DNA of 64,000 nt, from the NCBI GenBank assembly GCA_026026165.1, contig JAPEUD010000013.1:372001-436000 (forward strand), given 5' to 3'. Source of the stretch: Sarea resinae. Its lineage: Eukaryota. A program made the translations under genes and the position numbers. Of the stretch, positions 5,299 to 63,800 are shown piece by piece (position 1 is the stretch's first letter; the number at the start of each line of letters is the position of its first letter). Below the pieces are notes generated by a model. The model was not told where the DNA came from. It was given only the letters and a program-made list of their open reading frames with translations, and did no database searches.

Positions 5299-8200
5299 AT
5301 GGGATCCATCAGTACTGCTGGAGAAGCCGGTACGTTCAGTTCTTTTGCATCCATTTGCCCCGCCTTTCTGGCGGAACCCCGTTCGCCCATTGAAGACCAC
5401 TCACTGACGAGAGACTTGACCAGTTGCGCGAATCGCATACCTTTCTAGCGATGTGATCATCTCTGTCCAGCCTGCTCTGGCGGTCGATTCGGAGTTTTCG
5501 CAACATCTCCATGCATATGCCAGTCGAAAAGCCCCAGGCGTTATTGCCAAAAAGATACCCGAGGTGGGATATGTTTTCTTTCGCCCCCAGCTATTTGGGA
5601 CCTCTATTGACGGATAACAAAGATCATTTCCGTAAGACACAACGCCGATCCATTGCTCTCTGTGTTCGAGCCCATTCGAGGAGGCAACTTCGTTGCCGTC
5701 ACCACGTCTTCGTCCATTCTGCTGCCCTCAATTCCTCACCTCTATAAACTCGCGGAATACCCAGTAGTTATTCATGTCTCATTGGAGCCTACCAATTATC
5801 CCGACTACTCGGAAATAACAGCAATTCGCAACTCTGGATTCACTTTTTTGCAATCCGAGACCTTGCAGGAGGTCCAGGACATGGCTCTGTCCGCCCATGC
5901 TCTGGCGATCAAGTCTGGGAAAGGAGTCATCCACTTCTTCGATGCCGGAAAAGCGGCAGATGATACGCCTATCTCTTACGAAGACCAAAAGTTGGTCGGG
6001 GAAATTCTTGAGCCCAATTCAGCGAAGTCGTTCCAAAATTCGTCTGTTGCAGCCTCTTCTCTCTATGTGCCAGATGGCAGAGTGGCCACGGTCACAAACG
6101 GCACTTCAACTGCCATCAATGGAAACGTAAACACATCAACTCCTGCAGTCTCTGGCGAAAAGACTGGTTCGAAATCCGCTGGTACAGAGAACTCCTCTGT
6201 TGGCTCATCCCAGCGAGAGAGCAGCGCAGATAGTCGGCCAACCATCTCTTCGGCAACTTCGACGGAATCAACAGATACTCGGCCTGTAACTTCTGAAGAT
6301 ATATATAATTACATTTCTGAGACGTGGGCACAGATAGAAACGGCTACCGGTCGACAGTATCAGGCATTTGAGTATACAGGACCGGCCCATGCCGAACATG
6401 CACTCTTCATATTCGGCTCTGACACTGCCCTATTCGCCCGCGAAATCGACAGTGCGACCGCTTCAGATGCTTTCGCTAGATCTGGAGTCCTCACTGCTCG
6501 TCTTTATAGACCCTGGCTCGGCCAGAAACTTGTTGCGGTAGTTCCGAAATCCGTTAAGCGCATTGCGGTTCTAGAGCAAATAAGGAGAAAGACAACAAAG
6601 TGGGGACCTCTGTTACTAGATCTGCTCACCTCCCTCAGGACCGGGGAATCCATCGGTGGAGCCCCGCTGATTGTAGGTCATCAGCTTGGGTACATCGAGC
6701 CGGCGACGGTGCGACAAGCACTGCGAGGTATATTCCACAACCTACGGTCGGAAAGCCCTATCCAAAATCTTGAGATTGGAAGTTCGGAAAGACCAAAGCG
6801 ACTTCTGGAAAAGTACGAACTTGAGCAACCAAAGCTCGAGAATGCCTATATGAAAATTCTGGATCAGGTTTTTGCCGAGCGCCTACACGTCGCAAATCAA
6901 CTTGGTGCCAACAACGCTGGCATATCCGCTACGATTACTTCTAGTCCCGAATTTGGGTTCGGATCACTGATAGCTCGGTCAGAGCATCGAAAGCGCTTCA
7001 TACAAGAAGTCGAATCTGCCTCTAGAAGCCACGACTTTGCCACGGAAGTTCCGCGAAACTGGTTGTCACAATGGGCGTTGAATGCTGAAGACCCACAAAA
7101 ATCAAACGCATTGGCCTCGGAGGCTATCAAACGCCTATCCACGGACGGTTCTAAGCTTGCTTCGTTTCTCCTGTCCTCAAAGTCTCTCTTCTTCAAGGAA
7201 TCTCCGTGGCTGATTGGTTCCGATGCATGGGCTTACGATCTCGCCAACTCCGGCGTCCACCATGTCATCGCGTCGGGAGAGAACGTCAACATGTTGATCA
7301 TTGATTCTCAGCCTTACTCTGAACAAGCAGCCGCGGATGCCAATCGGAGGAAGAAGGATATCGGTCTTTACGCCATGAACTTCGGCAACGCATACGTGGC
7401 TTCGGTCGCGGTCTATAGCTCTTACACTCAAGTTCTACAGGCCATGATGGAGGCGGACAAATTTGACGGGCCCTCTGTCGTTTTAGCATATTTGCCTTAC
7501 AACAGAGAGGACGACTCCCCCCTGACAGTTCTGCAAGAGACTAAAAAGGCGGTCGATATCGGTTACTGGCCGCTATACCGCTGGAACCCCTTCAACGAAG
7601 AAAAGGGACTGTCTAATTTCTCCCTTGATTCTCAGCGTATCAAGCGTGACCTTGAAGAGTTTCTGAAGCGAGACAACCATCTCTCGCAACTTATGAAAAG
7701 ACACCCGCAGTTTTCTGCCAATCTTTCCGAGTCTTATGGCACTGAAGTGCGGAGCTTGCAGAAGAAGAGAGCAAAAGATGCTTATAGCTCACTTTTGGAA
7801 GGCCTCTATGGCGCACCCTTGACTATCCTCTTTGCTTCGGATAACGGGAATGCCGAGACATTGGCCAAGCGTCTGGGTAACAGAGGTAAGACTAGGGGCC
7901 TAAAGACCATGGTGATGTCCATGGACGACTATCCGATAGAGGATCTTTCATCCGAGGAAAATGTCGTCTTGATCACAAGCACTGCCGGCCAGGGTGAATT
8001 TCCCCAGAACGGACGCGCTCTGTGGGATACAGTCAAGGGCTCCACAGATATTGACCTAGCTTCGGTTCACTACTCAGTCTTTGGTCTAGGAGACAGTCAT
8101 TATTGGCCAAGGAAGGATGACAAGATCTACTATAACAAACCTGCGAAGGATTTAAACGCTCGGATTGCGGTCTTGGGCGCTAAGCCGTTGACTGACATTG

Positions 8201-10110
8201 GGCTTGGGGACGACCAGGATCCAGATGGATTCCAAACCGGATATAGCGAGTGGGAGCCCAAACTCTGGCAGGCACTTGGCGTCGACAAGATTGAAGGTCT
8301 ACCGGAAGAGCCTCCACCATTGACAAACGAGGATATTAAGATTCAGTCGAATTATCTTCGCGGGACTATTGTACAAGGCCTTGAAGACACGACCACGGGA
8401 GCAATATCTGCAAGCGATGCACAACTCACCAAGTTCCATGGTACTTATATGGAAGACGATCGTGATCTTCGAGAAGAACGCAAGGCTCAAGGTCTAGAGC
8501 CAGCATACTCTTTCATGATACGTTGTAAGCTGCCTGCTGGAGTAGCTACGCCAAGCCAGTACCTTCAGATGGATGCCATCAGTTCTAGCTACGGCAACGA
8601 AACGATGAAATTGACGACTCGGCAGACATTTCAATTTCATGGAGTTGTCAAAGGTTACCTCAAGCCAGCTATGCGCAGCATTAACAAGGCCTTGATGACG
8701 TCGCTTGGTGGGTGCGGTGATGTCAGCCGAAATGTCATGTGCAGCAGCCTGCCGGAACGGTCTCAGTTTCATCGGGATGTTTTTGAGATTTCCAAGGAGG
8801 TCAATGATCGTCTGATGCCTCAAACTACAGCGTACCACGAAATCTGGCTCAAGGATGAGAACGATAAGAAGGTGCAAGTGGCAGGAAATGCGGTTGTTGA
8901 CCACGAACCTCTGTACGGCCCAACGTATCTTCCGCGAAAGTTCAAGGTCACCATCGCCGTGCCTCCGCATAACGACACCGACGTGTACGCTCACGACATT
9001 GGCCTCATCGCCATTAAAGGCGCTGACGACCGGTTAGAGGGGTTCAACGTCCTCTGCGGCGGTGGTATGGGTGTCACTCACAATAACAAGAAGACGTATC
9101 CCCGAACGGGAAGTATGTTTGGCTATATTGCAAAGGAGCAGGCAGGCCTGATTTGCGAGAAAATCATGGTCATTCAACGCGATCATGGCGACCGCAAGAA
9201 CCGCAAGCACGCTAGACTAAAGTACACGGTTGATGATATGGGAGTCGAGACATTCAAGGCGAAGGTTGAAGAGCAGTCAGGCGTGAAGTTCGAGGAACCG
9301 AGGCCATTCCATTTTGACAGCAACATCGATACCTTTGGATGGCAAAAGGACGAAGGCGGCCTTAATCATTTCACAATGTTCATCGAAAACGGAAGGATAG
9401 AGAATACTGCCGACTTCCCCATGAAGACTGGACTCAGGGAGATAGCCAAGGTCCACAAGGGAGAATTCAGATTGACGGGCAACCAGCACCTTATACTCAG
9501 CAGCGTCCGTGATGCTGATTTGCCTCAGATGAAGGAGTTGCTTGCGAAATACAAGCTTGACAACATCCATCATTCTGGTCTGCGTCTCAGCTCTTCGGCT
9601 TGCGTTGCTTTCCCTACATGTGGGCTCGCAATGGCGGAGAGTGAGCGTTACCTACCAGAACTTATCGGCAAACTGGAAGGTGCTATCGAGGAAAATGGGC
9701 TGAGGCAGGACTCTATTGTCATGCGGATGACAGGCTGCCCGAATGGATGTGCTCGACCATGGCTGGCCGAGGTAGCTTTCGTTGGCAAGGCATACGGGGC
9801 CTACAACATGTATCTAGGGGGTGGATATCACGGCCAACGGCTTAACAAGCTCTACCGATCATCCATCAAGGAGGAAGAGATATTGGGCATCATGAAGCCT
9901 CTGCTCAAGAGATATGCTCTCGAGCGGCAGGACGGGGAGAGATTTGGTGATTTCGCCATCCGCATCGGGATGATCAAGCCCACGACGGAGGGGAAGACCT
10001 TCCATGACGATGTAAGTCGATGAATGCGAGCTCTGTGGCTCCTGATTACAAGACTTTGCTAATTACAAACCTTCTAGGTGGCGGACGAGGAATCAGAAGA
10101 GGAGTCGTGA
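5299..10110 (+). CDS. MET5: Sulfite reductase (NADPH) beta subunit (flavodoxin + siroheme/4Fe-4S hemoprotein); 4 exons
   Basis: MGSISTAGEA|VARIAYLSSDVIISVQP..|long exon with flavodoxin ILFASDNGNAE/TSTAGQGEFP, FHGTYMEDDRD, LPRKFK, CVAFPTCGLA and RMTGCPNGCAR|VADEESEEES*. Confidence 0.95.
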
Positions 10111-47397: not shown

Positions 47398-50300
47398 ATG
47401 AGCATCGACTTTCCCACAACGGAGGAAGACATTCTCCGGTACTGGCAAGAGATTGACGCCTTTCATACGCAACTTCGTTTGACAGAAGGCCGTGAGCATT
47501 TTACCTTTTATGATGGCCCACCTTTTGGTATGTCGTCGTCGACCCTACTGAATGTGTCTCGCGCAGTGGTCACTAATTCGATGGACTCGCAGCAACCGGT
47601 ACGAGTCATTTTCACTTCCGTAGTCGTGTTGCTTTAACATTCTCCTAGGCTTGCCGCACTATGGGCACCTCCTTACCTCCACCGTTAAAGATATCATACC
47701 ACGATACTGGTCAATGAAAGGATACCATGTCATTCGTCGCTTTGGTTGGGATACTCATGGCTTGCCTATTGAGTATGAGATCGACAAGACACTAGGTATC
47801 TCGGGCAGAGATGCTGTCATGCAGATGGGCATAGAAAAGTATAACGCGGAGTGCAGAGCTATTGTCATGAGATATGCCAGCGAGTGGAGACGGACTATCG
47901 AGCGTTTAGGTCGATGGGTCGACTTTGATAACGATTACAAGGTATAATGCAGTTTGGCACCACTCAGCTTGAATTCGTACTCAGGTTGTTTTAGTCGCTA
48001 GATGTCACTTTCATGGAGTCTTGTTGGTGGGTTTTCAAACAGCTCTTTGACAAAGACCAAGTCTATCGTGCCTACCAAATCATGCCCTTCTCGACAGCAC
48101 TCTGTACACCACTAAGCCATATAGAATCGAAGCAGAACGAAAAAACAACCCAAGACCCTGCGATACTGATAGCATTCCCGGTGCTCGGACGCAAGAGCCA
48201 GGAAAGCACTTCGCTTGTAATCTACACGACAACACCATGGACTCTAACGTCGAACCTCTTCATTGCTGTGCACCCCCAATTCAAGTACATTGAGATACTT
48301 GACGAAAAATCGGGAAACCAGTATGTCCTGTTAGAAAGTGGGCTTTCCATGCTCTACAAGGATCTGAAAAAGGCGCAGTACAAAATCACTCAGAAAATCA
48401 CCGGGCAGGACATGATTGGCTGGAAGTACAAGCCTCTTTTTCCTTATTTCGTCGATCGGTACTCCGATTGCTTCCAGGTCATTGGAGCCGACTACGTCGA
48501 GGCTGCCGAGGGCACAGGCCTTGTGCATCAGGCTCCAGCCTTCGGTCAGGAAGATTATGATGCCGCAGTCGCGGCAGGCTTTATCTCTCCAGAGCGTTTG
48601 CCGCCGTGCCCTGTTGATGACAAGGGTCTCTTTACTTTCGAGGTACCAGAATATGTTGGTCAGCATGTGAAGTCTGCAGACAAAGCGATCCTCCGGGACT
48701 TGAGATCTACTGGTCGCCTCTTAGTTGATAGCCAAGTTTTTCATGTGGACAAGTTCTGCTGGAGGTCCGATACTCAGCTCATCAGAAAAGCCGTGTCTTC
48801 TTGGTTTATTCGAGTCACAAATTCAATCCCGGATATGATCAAGAATCTGGAATCGACAACTTGGGTCCCTAACACTGTCAGGGATAAGCGTTTCGCAAAT
48901 TGGATCTCTAATGCCCACGATTGGAACGTTTCCCGAAACAGGTACTGGGGGACTCCGATTCCCCTATGGGTTAGTGAGGACTACGAAGAAGTCGTCTGTG
49001 TTGGCAGCATCAATGAGCTCAAAGAACTTAGTGGCTACACTGGCAAGTTAGAAGACATTCATCGGGACAAAGTCGACGGAATAACAATTCCTTCCAAGCA
49101 AGGAAAGGGACTCCTGCGACGCGTGGATGAGATTTTTGACTGCTGGTACGGAATGTCTTGATCTTATTAGCGTGGAGGCTTACAAACCCAGGTTCGAGTC
49201 TGGAAGCATGCCTTACGCATCCTGCCACTATCCCTTTGAAAATGATGATCAGTTCCGCGGTGGTCGTTTTCCGGCAGACTTTATTGCCGAGGGGCTCGAT
49301 CAAACCCGTGGGTGGTTTTACACTTTGAGTGTTCTTGGAAACAAGCTGTTCCAGGACTCTCCGTTCCGAAATTGCATCGTCAATGGTATCATACTGGCCG
49401 AAGATGGCAAGAAGATGTCCAAGAGCCTCAAGAAATACCCGGACCCCAATACTGTATTAAATCTGTACGGCTCTGACGCTTTAAGGCTCTATCTGATCAA
49501 CTCCCCAGTTGTTCGAGCAGAGTCAATACGCTTCAAAGAATCCGGCGTCAAGGAGGTAGTATCTAGCGTCCTTCTTCCACTGTGGAATAGCTATCGCTTC
49601 TTTTTCGAGCAAGTGACTCTATACAAGAAGAGTACCGGCTGCGATTTCATTGCAGAGCCCGAGCTGACAGAGGGCGGTTTGACCAATGTTATGGACAAAT
49701 GGATCCTCGCGGACTGTCAGAGCTTGTTGCGGTTCATGGACCAAGAGATGCGATGTGAGTAGCATTCTTCTTCCATTGCAACAACATAACTGACTCGTAA
49801 GGCTACCGTCTCTTTGCCGTTGTACCGCGATTGCTACAGGTTATTGACAATCTAACCAATTGGTACATTCGATTCAACCGCAAGAGACTGAAAGGTGTCG
49901 CAGGCCTTGAAACCGAGGACACGAAAGCTGCACTGAATACCCTTTTCCAATTGCTTTTCACAATCGTCCGAGCCATGGCGCCATTCACGCCTTTTATTAC
50001 CGTGCATATCTATGGGCTCCTAAAACCATACCTCGGCGATGCGGCAGCTCAATTCCAAGACTCGAGAAGCGTGCACTTTCTTCCATTTCCGACAGTGCAA
50101 GAGGCGCTATTTGATGAGGTAATTGAAAGAAAGGTTTCTGCAATGCAAAAGGTTATTCAACTTGCTAGGGCGGCCAGGGAGCGTTGCAATATTTCTCTGA
50201 AGACCCCCGTTCTCTCGCTTGTGGTCATTGCAGACACACAATTCATCTCTGACGTGCAATCGCTACAGTCTTATGTGAAGGAGGAACTCAATGTCCGAGA

Positions 50301-55999: not shown

Positions 56000-57260
56000 C
56001 CACAGCAACCAAGTCGCAAACGTGATTAGGAAGCCTGATCGTCTCACCATGACCTCTACTGCTCGATATACCTCTGGGAATGTATCCTTCTAGCTCTTTG
56101 TCCCGCGCTCTGTTTCGACGTTGAACTTTTTCAGCAAGTCCGTTGCCTTGAAACTTGACAGAGCTGCCTTTGCTGAAGCAGCCTTAGACGGCAAGCTTGA
56201 GGCATTGCGGAAGCTCTGACTAGGACAGCACTAGTGTAGGCCAATATTAAACATCAGAGCTCTATGATTGCGCAAGGGTAGCCACAGGGGTTGCATCTTT
56301 AGTCTAGCTTATTTGATCTACAGGCTAATAGATGTTGTCGATGCTGAAGGCATCGTAGGCGCTGTAGGCGTTATAGGCGTCATATTCTGCTTGCCGAGAA
56401 ATGCCACTGAATTATTCATTAGAGGCTATTAGCAGCTCTTCGCGCTATCGCATCTTAATAGGCCAGCAATAGACTAATAAAAGGGGCACATGTTAACGCT
56501 TACTATTGGCTAAAAGGAGCAGGAAGCACATAAGGTAGTTAAGAGAGGGGATCGGCGGAAAAGAGGCATATAATAAGAGAAGCTAAGAGAGCTTGTAATC
56601 AAGTTAAAGGTCTGAGTCTGCCTAGGTATTTGTATGATAATGACTAATTACTTTGCTTATACTATCTGATTAAAGCTCTATAAAATGCTCTAATTAGCCT
56701 ACACCTTTTTATATACTAATCTATTATCTTCTCTACACTATTTTTCGGAAATATATAAGAGGTGTCTTATTATAATAGAAGTAGGGCTTTAATTAGAATA
56801 TAGTAAAGCTTCTAATTGTGTTTGCTATAGCGTCAATGTAGAGTTCTTACCTGGTATGTCTAAATATAATTATCCCTTGATTAAAAATGCTTCTCTATAT
56901 AGAGTGACAACGTTGCAGAAATAGTTGTAGAAAGGAGGTATCGTTGAAATAGATCATTCTCTTTTACTCTTAATCTCAATCTTACTAAGAATCTATACTC
57001 TGCTCTATCAGAAGATGAACGATGAGTACTTGAACCTCTATCTTGATATAGTGCTAGTTGGGCGTAGAAAGCGACAGAGGAGCTCTCGTCTAGAGAATCG
57101 AGAATAGGTGCCGAGTAGCAATGAGCTCCTCAAGGGTTTGCTTGCTGAGATCCAACTCCGTAATTATATTTTCACTGCTGTTAGATGAGATTGGACGAGT
57201 CACATCCTTACCTCGCACCAGTCGAATCCTTTCAAGGGCCGCTGCCATATTTCAATATCC
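56000..57260 (-). pseudogene. Decayed, partly RIP-mutated sequence, possibly a gene or transposon relic; not identifiable
   Basis: Local TpA/TAG-rich AT-rich patch at about 56300-57050; stop-interrupted frames and intron-like signals on the minus strand; no recognisable domain. Confidence 0.3.
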
Positions 57261-58055
57261 TTGAGAAACGGGAAGGCTTTTTAGCCCGTGAGACCATCAG
57301 CAAAGGCTTAAAAAAAAGCTAGTTGGTCTATCGGGACATACAGGTGAAAGATATCCTATGTCATAATCCAAGAGCCGAGAGTAGGTATGAGATGACTGAT
57401 TGTTTTTGCATTTCAGGATGTCTAGGGACAATAAGGACGGCCATCGTCCCTCTGTTTCCCCAAACAGTAATTGCCCTAAGGGTCTTGACCCTGCATACTG
57501 GAATATCCAACCGGCTAGACTAAGAAAGACTACTATCGCCGTTGAATCAAGATAGGCACAGAACGTGAGCGAAGCCAATCTGTCACATGCCCGCTGACCC
57601 TCCGACATATGTGCGTGGCAAAAGATCTGATAGGGAATGAAAGAAAAACGTATCTTCGCACCAGGTAGAATGGCGAAAATCACGTAAAAGGGACAGAAAG
57701 ACGAGCGAGCCATATGGAGAAGAAGGAGCACAAGTTCGTAGAGAAGAGTTGAAAGATTTGTATATTCTAAAGTCTGACTGTGGTGTGGATAGAGCAAAGG
57801 TGGGGGGTATCTTTAATTCCCACGACTGGAGGAATTTACAGCGAAATGAAATCGTGACTTCGCCGAAGTCGAACTTGCTGATCAGGATGCGACCAATCAT
57901 CGAAATCTCAATCGGCTGCCATTGCATGTGTCACAGGCAACGCTGGCATTTTCTTAGTTCATTACATGCCATGAAGCGCAGGAACTATCTCCCTAATGCA
58001 TTTCCTCTCATGCTTATCCTTCACACGTAACGTGTTGATACTCTCCTAACAAAGC

Positions 58056-58520
58056 TCAATTGTTCTCCTGCCATCTACAGACACAATATCAGCTATCACG
58101 CTTGCAAATGTGACCTCACCATACTAGATAATTACCTGTGTCCGCACTCTGTGCAGTGATAGAAAATGGTAGTTCCTTCGTCTGCGCTTCTCAACTGCGC
58201 TTGAGACCAATTGACTTCTTTCGCATCACAGTTTGCACAGGAGACATTGATTCGTAAGTTCCCCATGTCCTGAGGTGTAACGGCTTGGATATTTGATGTG
58301 AGTTTGTTGCGTAATCGGGAGGGGAAATTTTCGGACGTCGTCATCCGTGATTGAAGCATCTTATCTAGAAAGAACTTTGCTTAGTCGCTCGAACTTAGAC
58401 AGGCAAAAGCATCGAGCCGTTCGAACTTTTGGTGGACTTTCCACACTGATCACACTGTACAAGTTCATTTGTCGATTCATCGAGTAGATTTCCACAGTCG
58501 TTGCAGAATTGAATCGCCAT
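58056..58520 (-). CDS. RNA polymerase I subunit A12 (RPA12)-like protein with a TFIIS-type C-ribbon, divergent; 3 exons
   Basis: MAIQFCNDCGNLLDES..VQCDQCGK|..FPSRLRNKL..CANC..QLRSADEGTTIFYHCTECGHR|WQENN*. Confidence 0.85.
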
Positions 58521-59569
58521 GCTGAATGCTTCAGAACCAAAGGCCTCGCAAGCCTAACTCTGATAGGTATTCGAGACAGTTGAGGTGTATTGACCAGATA
58601 GATCTCCGCTCTCAGGACTCGGGCTCGACTTGAAGTACAAAATTCGCTAATTCTCTGTAGGCTAAAGGTTCTACATCACACTTACAACGTGATATGCAGG
58701 GTCCTTAGCTGTTTTAGTATTGCACGTGATAATCTAGTTTGTTAAGAGTCTAGAGGTAAACTTAAGTCTCTACCTTTACTCTAGTAGGTAAGGATAGAAG
58801 CAACATAAGTTAAAGGTAAGTACTAAGCACACTATTTAGGCCCTACTCTAAGACTAGTTATAAAATGTATAAATTGTTTAATATTATTTAAAAGAGAATA
58901 AGTAATTAGAGCTAGAGAGTATCTAAGTACTCTAGATTACTCTTAATATATAGTAAGTAGTACTACTTATATTTAAACTTTTATCTATCTCTTAATAAAG
59001 TATATTACTACTTATACTAAGTCTAGACTTTCTAGCTATAATAAAGACCTAAAGATAGGTAGTATAAGATAGTATACTTCTATTTTAAGCTAAGCTAACT
59101 TACTGTTTAGTACCTTAGGTTCTATATAGGTAGTGGCTTGCTAAATTACACTCTAAGTAAGTAATAATAAGTACTATAATAAATTAATTACTACCTGCCT
59201 AATACTTATATAGCTAGGTATATTAGCAAAAATGTAAAATGTTTTATACACCTATAGTGTTAGAACATAAGAATTTATAGTGGCTTTATTAAGTTCTTAT
59301 TTACTATATATTAGAAGGTAGCACAAAGATATAAGTAGAGAAAGGTGCTAAAGAAGTATTATAGTATAGAATAATTATATATTATATAAACTTAGAGATT
59401 CTAGCTATAGAGGTATAAGGTAGTCATTATATAGATATAGCTAACTTACTAGAAACTTCTAGTGATAAGTAATTACATAAGTGATTTGTAATCAATAAAC
59501 TAGCAATAATATATGCTTTGTAAGAAAGTTAAGAGATAGTTACCTTAGTATCACATTAGGTAATCATAA

Positions 59570-60337
59570 AACTATGCTAAAACTGTGTTAAAACTGTGTT
59601 AAAACTGTGTTAAAACTATGTCATTACTACTATAGGTGTCAACACCTATAGAAATTGTGAGACAGTACTACAATAGTGTTGATTTTCATCACAGTTACTA
59701 ACACCTATATGTGTTGAACACCTCCTAGGTGTTGACACTGCTTGAAACCACTTGACTTTTTAACACCTATAGAAAAATCAGGCGAAAAAAAAGTAAATTG
59801 AGTACAGTAGGAATCGATCCTAGGAGCATTATATAATCAACTTATTGATGTTACACTAACTAGGCTATATGATTTGTTAGAAAATCTAACTCTCTAGTAG
59901 TATATAGCCTACTAAAACCATGATAATATTATTTTAACATAGAGATTTTCAAATTTTATCAAGATTTAGAGCCACCTAAATTCACTGAGACGTTCGATGA
60001 AAAAGGTCATGATTACATAAGCTTACATAATATTTGCAAAAATCGTTGAAAGTCTCAGTGAATATTAGCTTATTTGAAATTTTAAGAAATATCTACTACT
60101 ACTATAACACCTACTATTAGTTTTAACACTGTGTTAACACCTACAAGAGGTTTCTAACACCTATAGAAGGTGTTGACACCACCTATAGTTACAGGTACTA
60201 CTAGGTCTCAACACCTACTATTAGTTTTAACACTGTTACAACACTGTCTCAACACCTATAGAAGGTGTTCAACACCTATAAGAGGTTTCTAACACCTATA
60301 GGAGGTGTTAGATACTATTAATACTGTAACAACACAG
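59570..60337. repeat. Unclassified repeat with an 11-mer tandem (AAAACTGTGTT), many AACACCTA(T/C)A units, a tRNA-like segment and an internal inverted repeat
   Basis: aaaactatgctaaaactgtgttaaaactgtgttaaaactgtgttaaaactatg; aacacctata at 59641, 59700, 59762, 60157, 60251, 60271 and 60291. Confidence 0.7.
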
Positions 60338-60824
60338 TGTCAGGATATATAGGGTAGGCACTAAAGTATATAACTTTCATGTTATAGAAGTTCTATAGGT
60401 GTCTAAGATATTCTATAGACTTCTAGAGAATTATAGGATGCTTAGTCAGCATAGCTATAGAATCTTCTAGAATGTTCTATAAGATTCTATAGGGTTCTAC
60501 TATGTTCTATTAGCTTCTATAGCTATGTAGAAGCTTCTAGATGTATCTATACTGTTATGTGACATTCTGTAACAGTCTAGATACTTAAGAGTGACTAGAA
60601 TTAAGGTTATAATTCTAACACACCCTCTTAAGCTTAATTCTATAGGATAGGTATGCAATTTAGAACACCTATAGAACTTGGCTTTTTGTAACAGTTGCTA
60701 TAGGTACGCAGTTTTATGCACCTATAGAAATTGCATGTTCTTTAGGTGTAGGCTGTATCTAAATAGCCTTTAGGACTTCTAGCCACTTTTAAGTGCTAAG
60801 TGGCTTAGTAAAGCCGTCTGCTAG
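60338..60824 (-). mobile_element. 3' end of a Ty1/Copia LTR retrotransposon (RNase H tail, PPT, 3' LTR 60338-60620), RIP-mutated
   Basis: Minus strand LADGFTKPLST (60824-60792) is the Copia RNase H ADxxTK motif. Purine tract TAAGAGGGTG abuts an LTR with termini TGTTAGAA...TCCTGACA. Confidence 0.8.
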
Positions 60825-63800
60825 TGTGATAGGGTAAACTGGCAATAGTTTAGTCATCAGGCATTAGTGGTGGGGTTGTGTTCCTTAGGGGGTTAGAAAG
60901 GAGGCATTATTAGTTCTTTATACATGCATTCAGTTATTAGTTTTCTAGCAGTCAGTTAAGCAAGCAGTTAGCGTGTTAGTTTTCTTCTCTTCTTCTTATT
61001 ACTTAGTTACTAGGCTATAGGCTGATACCTCCTATTAATTAATACGCTTGTTCTGCCACCTATTTAAGTTCTCTAAGACATATTAGTAAGTAGTAAGACC
61101 TAAGACAGTGACACACTTAACAACTATTAAGTATAGCAGCGCTATTACAATTTAGCAACTCCTATATCTTTAAGACTATCTAGCACTTATCTAGTGCAAT
61201 CTAGTTTCTTCTCTTATATTAGTGACCTATATAGGGCTTAAACAACACAGATTTAACTAGAAAGTGCTCTATAAATAAGTATAAACACTGCTTAAAAGAT
61301 ATATAGAAGGGTTACTAGATCTATAAGGCTAGTACAAAACCTAGCCTATATAATTAGGACTCTAGAAGATTAGCATAATATAAAAGAGATAAGAAGTAGG
61401 AATTACAAAGACCTAGAAAAGAATTTAGAAACAAAGATATAAAGTTTAGAGATTACACTATAAGAAATTCTTCTAGACTAACTAGATCTTATTGTTAAAA
61501 TAGTTAGGTGTTAGCTATTTATCTAAAGAGGTAAGAGGTAATCCTTAATAGCTTATAGTTTATTTAGTAATAAGGTAGTTTATTAAGCGTTATATAAGAA
61601 GAATAAATAGAAGGAACAGCTTTATTATATGCTAAAGAGTGTGCTAAGAGATATTTAATACACTACTAGAGATAAGTAGATTAGTAAGAGTATAATAAGG
61701 TCTAAATATAAGAGAGTTAAAAACAGCATATAGAATAAGTGTCTTTATAAGTTAATAAGATTTATTTAGGCAATTATTTAAGAGATAGTAAACTCTGTTA
61801 TAACTATAATTATTACTGCTATATAAATGTGTTTCTCTCTACACTTTTAAAGAGACAGTTTACTAGAATTACTAACACTACCTATAATAGCTGCTAGCAC
61901 TATATTCTTACTTACTATATATTACCTTACTTCTATACTATTCTCTAGGACTTATAGTGTACTTTACTTTAATAAGGTAAACGCAATAGAGTTTTTTAAG
62001 AGGTATAAAAGACTATATAAAGATTACTAGCTTAACTAGACTAAGATATTTAAGCAGCTTCTATATTATTATAAGAGTATTATATCTTATAGTATTAAGA
62101 CTATACTAGAGTATCTTATAGATTAGGATAAGTTTAAGAAATTACTGCTAAAAGATTACTCTAATTAGGATATAGAGTAGTAAATTAACTCTTAAGCTTA
62201 CTTTAAAGCCTTTAAAAAGAAACTCTATTTAAATATAGAAGAGATCTATTAATATTATTATTAGTTCTAGAGTATCTCTTAAGCTCTATACTAGAAAAAC
62301 AAGCTTAATACCTATACCTATATATTATAGTTTCTCTAAAGCCTTTCTTAAGATATCTAAGTTAAAGTTATTATATATAGCTATATTAACTTAGATAATT
62401 ATAACTCTACTAATATTAACTTTAAGAAGATCTTTAATATTGCTATTAAATAATGTTAATCTATATAGGCACTATAAAAGCTAGATAAGACTAAGCTAAT
62501 AAAGATAGTAAAAACCTTAATTAAAGGATAATATCTAGCTCTAAAGGCTATAGTAGTAGGACTACTCTAACCTCTAGTTATATAAGATTATATAGAAAGA
62601 ATAATAAGTAAGAAGGTTAATAAGGTTATAGATAAATTAGTAGATAAGTTAGCTAGCTTAATAATTCTAATTAAGGTAGTTATAGCAAGTGCTATAAATA
62701 TTACTAAGCTCTTTACTTAGATACTATCTTTTATCTTAAAAGCTATAAGCGCACTAAACTACTAGATTAGCTAGCAGAATAATAGAATAGATCTAGCTTA
62801 TAATACAAACTATACTTAATTAACTAGGTGTTTTAGATATAGTGACTAACGCTATAGATTTGCTAATTGCTTATTAATATAGCAGCTCTTTATAAGTAGG
62901 AAGATTTATTTTAATAAGCATTATTAAATATATTAGGGTCTTAAAAGGCAAGGTAGAATAGAGTTATATATTTCTCCTAGCAAATATTAAGCTCTCTTTA
63001 TTAATAGAGAATAGAAAAAGATATATAATAAGAAGAAGAAGTAACTAGGCCTTAGCTTAGCAGTTAACTTAGTAAGAGTTAGTTCTATTTATACAGTAGA
63101 TTTTAAACTAGATAATATAGATATAGAAGCTAATAATTATAACTAATTAAATATCTATTTAGTAAGATAACTTAAGAGAATCCTTAGATAAGGATCTAAC
63201 TCTAATATATAGAAACCTATATAGGACCTAGATACTAGAGTCTATAAGAGGCGAATTTAAGAGAAAGAAAAGTTACCTATAGCTAAGAATATCTACCTTA
63301 GAATATACTAGAGCAGTTGTGTTCTTAAGAAGAGAGATATAGTTTATTATAAAAAACAGCCTCTATAATATTCTAGCCTAGCTAGTAGTTCTAAGAAAAG
63401 AGTAGAGTTTACTAAGCTAGAGCTAATAGATAAGGTAGAGAAGATATATTAATAAAAGATTTATTAACGCTAATTATCTAATTACTTTAAAGAAGATACT
63501 AACCTTACTTCTCTTATTAATATAATACTAGATTAGTAGCTTAACTATATTATTATTAAGGATCTTCTTTTAAATACACCTAAAGTTTAGAAGCTTTTCT
63601 TTAAGAACCTTAGAGAAGAGTTATACTCTTTAGGTAGAAGATTAGAAGGTTATCTTATAGCTAGATAGTATAATATAGACTACCTAGTAATAGTTAAAAA
63701 GATAACAAGTAATAATTACACTAAGGAGAAAATACTAAATTCTATATTATATACTACTAAGTGTATAATAGTAGAAGTAAGTATTAAAAGAAAAGAGAAT

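Follow-up and report, generated by a model that had tools for sequence, protein, structure and literature searches.

Gene structure and protein identity

The DNA analyzed here (the window) is a stretch of 64,000 nucleotides from the metagenome-assembled genome (MAG) of Sarea resinae, contig JAPEUD010000013.1, and the gene under study encodes an isoleucyl-tRNA synthetase (IleRS). Sarea resinae is placed in the Sareomycetes by the NCBI taxonomy. The gene lies on the plus strand and consists of six exons that specify a protein of 1083 amino acids (Table 1). Splice sites were read directly from the window sequence, and the spliced model is 100% identical over all 1083 residues to the database protein 'MAG: hypothetical protein M1819_001308 [Sarea resinae]' (P0001). 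The second exon is a micro-exon of 6 nt, to which Ala44 and Thr45 were assigned because a five-exon model lacks these two residues of PPFATG, both of which are present in P0001.

The protein carries the Pfam domains tRNA-synt_1 (PF00133), Anticodon_1 (PF08264) and DUF5915 (PF19302), and its residues 4-1082 align end to end with residues 9-1071 of the yeast IleRS chain 8wnd_A (E=0). The signature motifs HYGH and KMSKS are intact, as are GWDTHGLP, GQED with the editing Asp, and LPLWNS, and the CP1 editing domain is present with its threonine-rich motif and editing Asp. The gene encodes a complete cytoplasmic-type class Ia isoleucyl-tRNA synthetase. Because all catalytic and editing motifs are intact, and because the gene belongs to a lineage under purifying selection (see below), the enzyme is predicted still to activate isoleucine and to charge tRNA-Ile. 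An initial annotation of this DNA, made from the letters alone, had described three divergent peptides together with preserved catalytic motifs. The peptides were recovered on the plus strand of the window in the frame of the open reading frame (ORF) 47995..49161, and HYGH, KMSKS, GQED and LPLWNS were all found. Peptide positions are given below as residues of the spliced window protein; substitutions follow yeast numbering, transferred through the alignment with 8wnd_A, unless they are private to the window protein.

Table 1. Exons, motifs and divergent segments of the IleRS gene in the window (CP, connective peptide)
Feature	Position	Strand	Basis or residue changes
Exon 1 (M1 to F43 plus 1 nt)	47398..47527	+	ATG and GT donor; spliced translation equals P0001
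Micro-exon CAACCG (6 nt), Ala44-Thr45 of PPFATG	47593..47598	+	AG/GT flanks; both residues present in P0001
Exon 3, with HYGH and GWDTHGLP	47649..47941	+	Splice sites, translation, yeast alignment
HYGH, residues 49-52	47657..47668	+	
Exon 4 (S144 to W527): CP core, editing domain, both linkers, all three segments	47995..49145	+	Pfam tRNA-synt_1, E=3e-47
Segment 1, residues 167-193	48064..48144	+	G174A, V177I, F191M (I in the window protein, codon 48121..48123), Y197E
Segment 2, residues 218-230, threonine-rich editing motif	48217..48255	+	W222Y class-wide; P228T private (codon 48247..48249)
Segment 3, residues 393-414, return linker from the editing domain	48742..48807	+	Y398D, P399K, P407Q, Y410R around the kept W402
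His451, position of yeast Arg454	48916..48918	+	H in 52/56 class A, R in 172/177 class B
Exon 5, with KMSKS and LPLWNS	49192..49754	+	Pfam tRNA-synt_1
KMSKS, residues 601-605	49412..49426	+	
Exon 6: anticodon-binding and C-terminal domains, stop codon	49802..50910	+	Pfam Anticodon_1, DUF5915

Classification and distribution of related sequences

Of 8000 candidates that were scored, 5636 proteins had E<=1e-20. The best 120 full-length relatives of exon 4 among them were aligned and sorted by the three segments of Table 1 into classes A, B and C, names that are coined here. Class A (56 of the best 120) holds the window protein and sequences mostly from Sordariomycetes, together with Talaromyces verruculosus and Myotisia (Onygenales). 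Its segment 1 reads YRAYQIMP[FY]STALCTPLS[HQ]ME[SA]KQNEK and its segment 3 ends in [KR]AVSSWF. Class B (59 of the best 120) is the canonical type with YRGY[KR]VMPYSTALNTPLSNFEAQQNYK and LAWTTTPWTLPS[NH]. The canonical consensus given in the initial annotation was accurate, these 59 rows, the sea urchin enzyme included, reading approximately YRG[YF][KR]VMPYSTALNTPLSNFEAQQNYK and LAWTTTPWTLPS[NH]. The remaining five sequences are intermediate and make up class C; they come from Piccolia, Chaenotheca, Sarcosagium, Rasamsonia emersonii and, more loosely, Phylliscum, and keep F191 and Y197. The window protein shows all of the class A diagnostic residues (A174, I191 in place of M, E197, Y222, D398, K399, Q407, R410 and H454), and its exon 4 identity to fungal class B is about 60-62%. 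Matches of 935 amino acids and 60% identity could be mistaken for bacterial proteins; since they start at the first residues of the query, they are class B genes of fungi that prokaryotic gene calling has cut short.

Classes A and B occur together in at least six species, namely Thyridium curvatum, Stachybotrys elegans, Lecanicillium saksenae, Metarhizium anisopliae, Tolypocladium capitatum and Diaporthe sp. PMI_573, and both proteins of a species have a common locus-tag prefix wherever tags are shown. A search with a Sordariomycete class B query gave class B proteins across Sordariomycetes and Leotiomycetes. At 90% identity, one class A cluster comprises at least 15 species of Hypoxylon, Annulohypoxylon and Daldinia (Hypoxylaceae), a second comprises many Metarhizium species, and the Talaromyces cluster includes T. 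pinophilus. Class A is a widespread and undescribed paralog lineage of the IleRS of Pezizomycotina; no description of a fungal IleRS paralog was found in the searchable literature, which has subscription journals outside its coverage. The substitutions are the mark of this whole lineage, with 56 proteins among the best 120 relatives, and no special adaptation of the one gene in the window.

Replacement of conserved sites in class A

The comparison set comprised 56 class A, 5 class C, 177 class B and 13 outgroup IleRS sequences. A position was called diagnostic when at least 90% of class B had one residue and at least 80% of class A another, and 38 of the 1083 positions qualify. It was called deeply conserved when one residue reached at least 90% in both the 177 class B and the 13 outgroup sequences; there are 178 such positions. 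Ten of them are replaced in class A: G174A, F191M, Y197E, W222Y, K383R, Y398D, P399K, P407Q, Y410R and T578N. R454H is an eleventh notable change, and T315E, S318E and E331Q (two residues before the editing Asp) are further class A changes inside the editing domain. D398, K399, Q407 and R410 are 100% conserved across the 56 class A sequences.

The stem of class A fixed non-conservative replacements at sites that are invariant in the sampled canonical fungal and outgroup IleRS. They concentrate in helix alpha8 of the CP core, in helix alpha19 and in the pair of linker strands on which the editing domain hinges. Residues 1-100, where HYGH lies, hold 21 conserved sites and no replacement; residues 501-600 hold 41 and one replacement (T578N), and residues 601-700, with KMSKS, none. 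The changes strike otherwise invariant sites beside and inside the editing domain and leave the Ile/ATP motifs untouched; the initial observation is confirmed. As to clustering, nine of the ten replaced sites fall in residues 162-451, which contain 50 of the 178 conserved positions (P=5e-5, for a region picked after the data had been seen), and eight fall in the three segments, a circular test since the segments were picked for their substitutions. With no region chosen beforehand the clustering is only modest, with P=0.063 for the mean nearest-neighbour distance and P=0.032 for the shortest span that takes in eight of the ten sites.

Selection and private changes

Pairwise NG86 dN/dS was calculated over the exon 4 region for pairs with dS<1.5. 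The median was 0.066 in class A (11 pairs from 10 sources) and 0.063 in class B (34 pairs, 50 loci). Class A is under strong purifying selection, as strong as that on class B. Across the 356 sites where the rest of class A is conserved to at least 97%, the window protein has six private changes (M145L, M186I, V202I, P228T, N608K and L851V); it ranks 40th of 56 in this respect and is no outlier. P228T alters the near-universal editing motif WTLPSN and occurs in 1 of 55 class A and 1 of 177 class B sequences.

Micro-exon

Metagenome contigs were scanned with the class A alignment and the peptide patterns FGQEDYD and NWYIRFN, which gave 76 loci, 12 of class A and 64 of class B by their motifs. 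In 9 of 11 class A sources a single micro-exon of the form CNACNG lies between two short introns; two loci fall outside this simple pattern. It was seen in the window and in loci L003-L009 and L015, with the synonymous variants CAACCG, CGACAG, CCACAG, CAACAG and CTACCG. In class B the same codons are contiguous in 52 of the 64 loci and the micro-exon occurs in none of these 52; the other 12 loci are without the N-terminus or unmatched. The Thr of PPFATG is gapped in 26 of the 56 class A protein models, six of which also lack the preceding Phe and are accordingly truncated at the N-terminus. For annotation the consequence is that about 20 of the 56 class A database models are without the Ala-Thr of the active-site loop, probably because gene callers missed the 6-nt micro-exon.

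Phylogeny of class A

Trees were calculated with FastTree (109 rows, 1075 columns) and with IQ-TREE under LG+G4 (69 rows). Class A, with the window protein inside, is a clade with 100% support in both trees and has a stem of 0.24-0.27 substitutions per site. It is joined at its base by a grade of class C sequences (99% support in both trees). Class C has Y410R (in LIRKAVS) and several other states in common with class A. It differs in keeping F191, Y197 and W222, in having R or K at position 454, and in the lack of the long stem, and it changed Y398 and P399 to other residues than class A did (V and G). The class C proteins (P0053, P0054, P0056, P0057 and P0109) come from several lichen-associated lineages and from Rasamsonia emersonii; the relatives Sclerophora and Rasamsonia byssochlamydoides have class B. 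This distribution suggests an old duplication followed by differential loss.

Class B tracks the species tree, whereas the order inside class A departs from it, with Eutypa beside Fusarium and Neonectria, and Stachybotrys beside Sordariales. The window protein pairs with Talaromyces (85%) within a group of 12 rows (97%) that holds Phialemonium, Hypoxylaceae, Diaporthales and Plectosphaerellaceae. Horizontal transfer to Sarea from within the Sordariomycetes, as this nesting would have it, was considered and is not established: in the approximately unbiased (AU) test a topology that unites all 34 class A rows from Sordariomycetes to the exclusion of Sarea, Talaromyces and Myotisia is not rejected (p=0.169). 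Over its full length the window protein is 77% identical to its nearest class A relatives, the same level as that between the class B proteins of Trichoglossum and Sordariomycetes (76-77%). Given the AU result and these matching identities, transfer of the gene and an old vertical origin followed by many losses are both possible.

The same nesting, in a record that is a MAG, could also arise if the contig had been mis-binned and really belonged to a Sordariomycete in the sample, the odd taxon then being an artefact. This is very improbable. The gene lies on a contig of 509,593 bp whose genes SPB4 and GDA1, neighbours of the IleRS gene, are singletons at 90% clustering, no sequenced Sordariomycete comes closer than 77%, and the AU test is compatible with a place for the protein outside the Sordariomycetes. 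In the likely source run the word depth over the gene is about 340-376, which is high in absolute terms and says nothing on which organism dominates.

IleRS complement of Sarea resinae

No class B or class C protein of Sarea is present among the best 120 relatives of exon 4, from a MAG that may be incomplete. A class B query from Trichoglossum likewise returned no Sarea protein among the 120 matches listed; ranks 2-5 were taken by Pycnora (83%), Pleopsidium (82%), Sclerophora (80%) and Candelina (79%), mostly from MAG records. Trichoglossum, Pycnora, Pleopsidium and Candelina, presumed relatives of Sarea, partly by their NCBI classes and partly by a phylogenomic study, all have the canonical residues, so that the class A states are not those of the housekeeping IleRS in these taxa. 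Sarea resinae probably has no cytoplasmic IleRS other than this class A enzyme.

Genomic surroundings

Pfam was run on 46 of the 81 window ORFs of at least 130 amino acids. Upstream of the IleRS gene lie genes for Rpb8, a NUDIX protein, Hikeshi, GDA1 and SPB4, and downstream those for an O-methyltransferase and a Zn2Cys6 regulator. No polyketide synthase (PKS), nonribosomal peptide synthetase (NRPS) or terpene synthase was found among the scanned ORFs, and no core biosynthetic enzyme within the 47 kb upstream or 13 kb downstream that the window covers. No tRNA genes were found in the window. The ORF 5611..10023 (+), uninterrupted over 1470 amino acids, has POR_N, flavodoxin and nitrite/sulfite reductase domains and by these looks like the beta subunit of an assimilatory sulfite reductase, which supports the window as ordinary housekeeping territory. 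Across 56000..64000 the GC content drops in steps, starting at about 48% and reaching 25% (25-34% from about 58 kb on). This AT-rich block begins about 5 kb past the downstream neighbours of the IleRS gene and could reflect repeat-induced point mutation of repeats.

The flanks of seven class A metagenome loci (0.2-10 kb; L015, L003 and L004 left out) were scanned in the same way for 46 of their 165 ORFs, those of at least 168 amino acids. Genes for glycoside hydrolases, a nucleoside transporter, an SDR, a flavoprotein and an NLR-like protein were identified, and no PKS, NRPS or terpene synthase was found among these 46 ORFs of short flanks. A gene for dihydroxy-acid dehydratase, an enzyme of isoleucine/valine biosynthesis, stands head to head with the class A IleRS gene at L006:1200-3489 (-), L007:1597-3605 (-) and L015:1169-3177 (-). 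L015 is 99.5% identical to L007, and L006 and L007 are about 86% identical, so that the linkage is found in two related Chaetomiaceae-like species only. By tblastn the dehydratase gene is absent from the 64 class B loci and from the window. The dehydratase family is also the duplicated target of aspterric acid.

These surroundings bear on cluster self-resistance, in which the fungus would make an IleRS inhibitor and keep an insensitive copy of the target beside the pathway genes. Duplicated targets of this kind are known from fungal clusters, for example lysyl-tRNA synthetase for cladosporin, listed in the FunARTS paper (PMC10320164). Class A has in common with such genes that, in several species, it is a diverged second version of an essential enzyme alongside the canonical one. 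The O-methyltransferase and Zn2Cys6 regulator just downstream, and the dehydratase in 3 of the 12 class A loci, would fit as well. Class A is unlike those genes in that no biosynthetic genes adjoin it in the window or in the scanned loci. Moreover, a comparison of eight window neighbour proteins with the 76 IleRS loci gave no match, and no second Sarea IleRS appeared among the 120 matches listed. Self-resistance of this kind is considered quite improbable.

Relation to the CCA-end pocket

In yeast IleRS, reveromycin A occupies the site of the tRNA CCA end (PMC7955072). Helix alpha8, the editing-domain linkers and helix alpha19 close and open the CCA cleft and form the reveromycin A pocket in the yeast structures (PMC7955072, PMC11685878). 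F191, a residue of CP-core helix alpha8, belongs to a hydrophobic sandwich, and F191A weakens reveromycin A binding; R454 pairs with the C1 carboxylate of the compound, and the equivalent LeuRS residue binds the ribose of A73 (PMC7955072). The contacts used here are the 16 residues named in the text of PMC7955072: F48, T50, H54, V89, P90, F191, W402, W449, R454, W456, R460, R462, D527, W529, Y571 and T572.

Class A has M at the F191 site in 54 of 56 sequences and I in two, one of them the window protein; F is found there in 175 of 177 class B, all five class C and 12 of 13 outgroup sequences. R454 is replaced by H as given in Table 1. The other 14 of the 16 contacts are kept in class A, as is the Asn of LPLWNS. 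Y398D, P399K and P407Q lie within five residues of the contact W402, which Y410 flanks as well, and T578N lies on helix alpha21, downstream of the contacts Y571 and T572. In Sordariomycete and Leotiomycete class B (P0093, P0271-P0389 and others) HSYPMC[PY]RS is found in place of HSYPFCWRS, so that the housekeeping enzyme has lost Trp402, and P or Y also occurs in some Lecanoromycetes. A yeast N660D change is reported to confer resistance to reveromycin. The Asn is kept in the window protein, and 'N660' does not occur in PMC7955072.

Interpretation

The explanation preferred here, tentatively and at somewhat less than an even chance, is that class A is a functional IleRS with a rebuilt CCA-end gate and with altered, namely lower, sensitivity to ligands of the pocket. 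After the split from class B, the stem of class A replaced otherwise invariant sites around the gate of the tRNA CCA end. The enzyme would keep isoleucine activation and charging of tRNA-Ile, working through a reshaped acceptor-end gate, and the new shape would lower its sensitivity to natural compounds that bind the tRNA-end pocket. In many Sordariomycetes the canonical enzyme would then be accompanied by class A as a refractory second isoform. The suggestion of the initial annotation that the changes evade an inhibitor of the tRNA site is borne out in that F191 and R454, both reveromycin A contacts, are replaced. It falls short in the overlap with contacts as a whole, since the presence of two of the 38 diagnostic positions among the 16 contacts is not significant (P=0.11). 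Evasion of an inhibitor is plausible but unproven.

Several further results weigh against a rebuilt and less sensitive gate. Five diagnostic positions lie within five residues of a contact (P=0.27). In PMC7955072, F191 and R454 do not appear in the list of residues that lower affinity more than 10-fold when mutated. The contact W402 is P or Y in 128 of 272 canonical sequences; class B varies at this site, and the pocket is therefore not fixed in fungi. To these are added the modest clustering once no region is chosen beforehand, and the lack of PKS, NRPS and terpene synthase genes in the scanned ORFs of the window and of the class A flanks; no inhibitor is known, and the surroundings imply none. 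If class A is the only IleRS of Sarea, then it is the housekeeping enzyme there and not an extra resistance copy. A wood-decay metatranscriptome contains near-identical contigs over parts of the gene, one of which runs unspliced through the intron 47942..47994; this signal may be DNA or pre-mRNA and is no proof of transcription.

A specialisation in kinetics or fidelity, with no inhibitor involved, ranks below the preferred explanation and is unlikely, if still a serious candidate. With its changed hinge and gate, which move the tRNA end between the synthetic and editing sites, the duplicated enzyme would strike another balance of speed and proofreading or be adapted to certain growth states. 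The two isoforms would be retained because their roles complement each other, and Sarea would have kept only class A. Replaced sites are found in the CP core, in both linkers of the editing domain and within that domain (W222Y, T315E, S318E and E331Q), and translocation of the CCA end requires rotation of exactly these parts (PMC11685878). The strong purifying selection, the lack of any cluster context in the scanned regions, and the change of the same sites Y398 and P399 in class C fit this explanation too. The patchy distribution of class A and its conflict with the species tree suit an accessory trait open to selection better than they suit a division of labour in a core function.

Ordinary divergence is an improbable account. 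Here the changes would be compensatory or neutral ones that followed an old duplication and left function the same, and the window would simply hold the IleRS of Sarea. The exon 4 and Trichoglossum queries, with no canonical Sarea IleRS among the best 120 relatives, agree with it, as do the housekeeping neighbours Rpb8, Hikeshi, NUDIX, GDA1 and SPB4, the drift of the linker motif around W402 in canonical enzymes, and the 77% identity to Sordariomycete class A, which matches that of class B between Trichoglossum and Sordariomycetes. Against it, ten sites kept at 90% or more in the sampled canonical fungal and outgroup IleRS, sea urchin included, changed on one branch and then froze, those at 398, 399, 407 and 410 completely; radical exchanges are among them (Y to D, P to K, Y to E, Y to R), and both copies are retained together in at least six species.

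Comparison with known systems sets these possibilities in context. Class A resembles the canonical eukaryotic cytoplasmic IleRS (yeast Ils1; PDB 7d5c, 8wnd) in domain order, full-length alignment, HYGH, KMSKS, GWDTHG and the editing Asp. It differs at the 38 diagnostic positions, ten of them deeply conserved, in R454H, and in the extra 6-nt micro-exon. Like the bacterial IleRS1/IleRS2 pairs (PMC10485003), classes A and B are two types in one genome, one of them diverged and patchy. In mupirocin-resistant bacterial IleRS2 resistance lies in the synthetic site and a signature motif, whereas the class A changes lie at the tRNA-end gate and leave the signature motifs unchanged. Should class A prove refractory to an inhibitor, bacterial IleRS2 would be its closest functional analogy. 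The fuller scenario, rather unlikely as a whole, is that class A is an inhibitor-refractory eukaryotic counterpart of IleRS2 with a remodelled gate, which passed from Sordariomycetes to Sareomycetes and Eurotiomycetes and displaced the canonical enzyme in Sarea.

Drugs against fungi and parasites can be aimed at cytoplasmic IleRS, where the tRNA-end pocket is the most recent site of inhibition. If the rim of this pocket (F191M/I, R454H and the surroundings of W402) is truly rewritten in class A, the lineage would be a possible natural source of target-based tolerance. For genome mining, class A could also be a useful marker, provided that some organism makes a matching inhibitor. Species that contain both class A and class B offer a comparison pair for the control of CCA translocation by the CP core and the editing-domain hinge.

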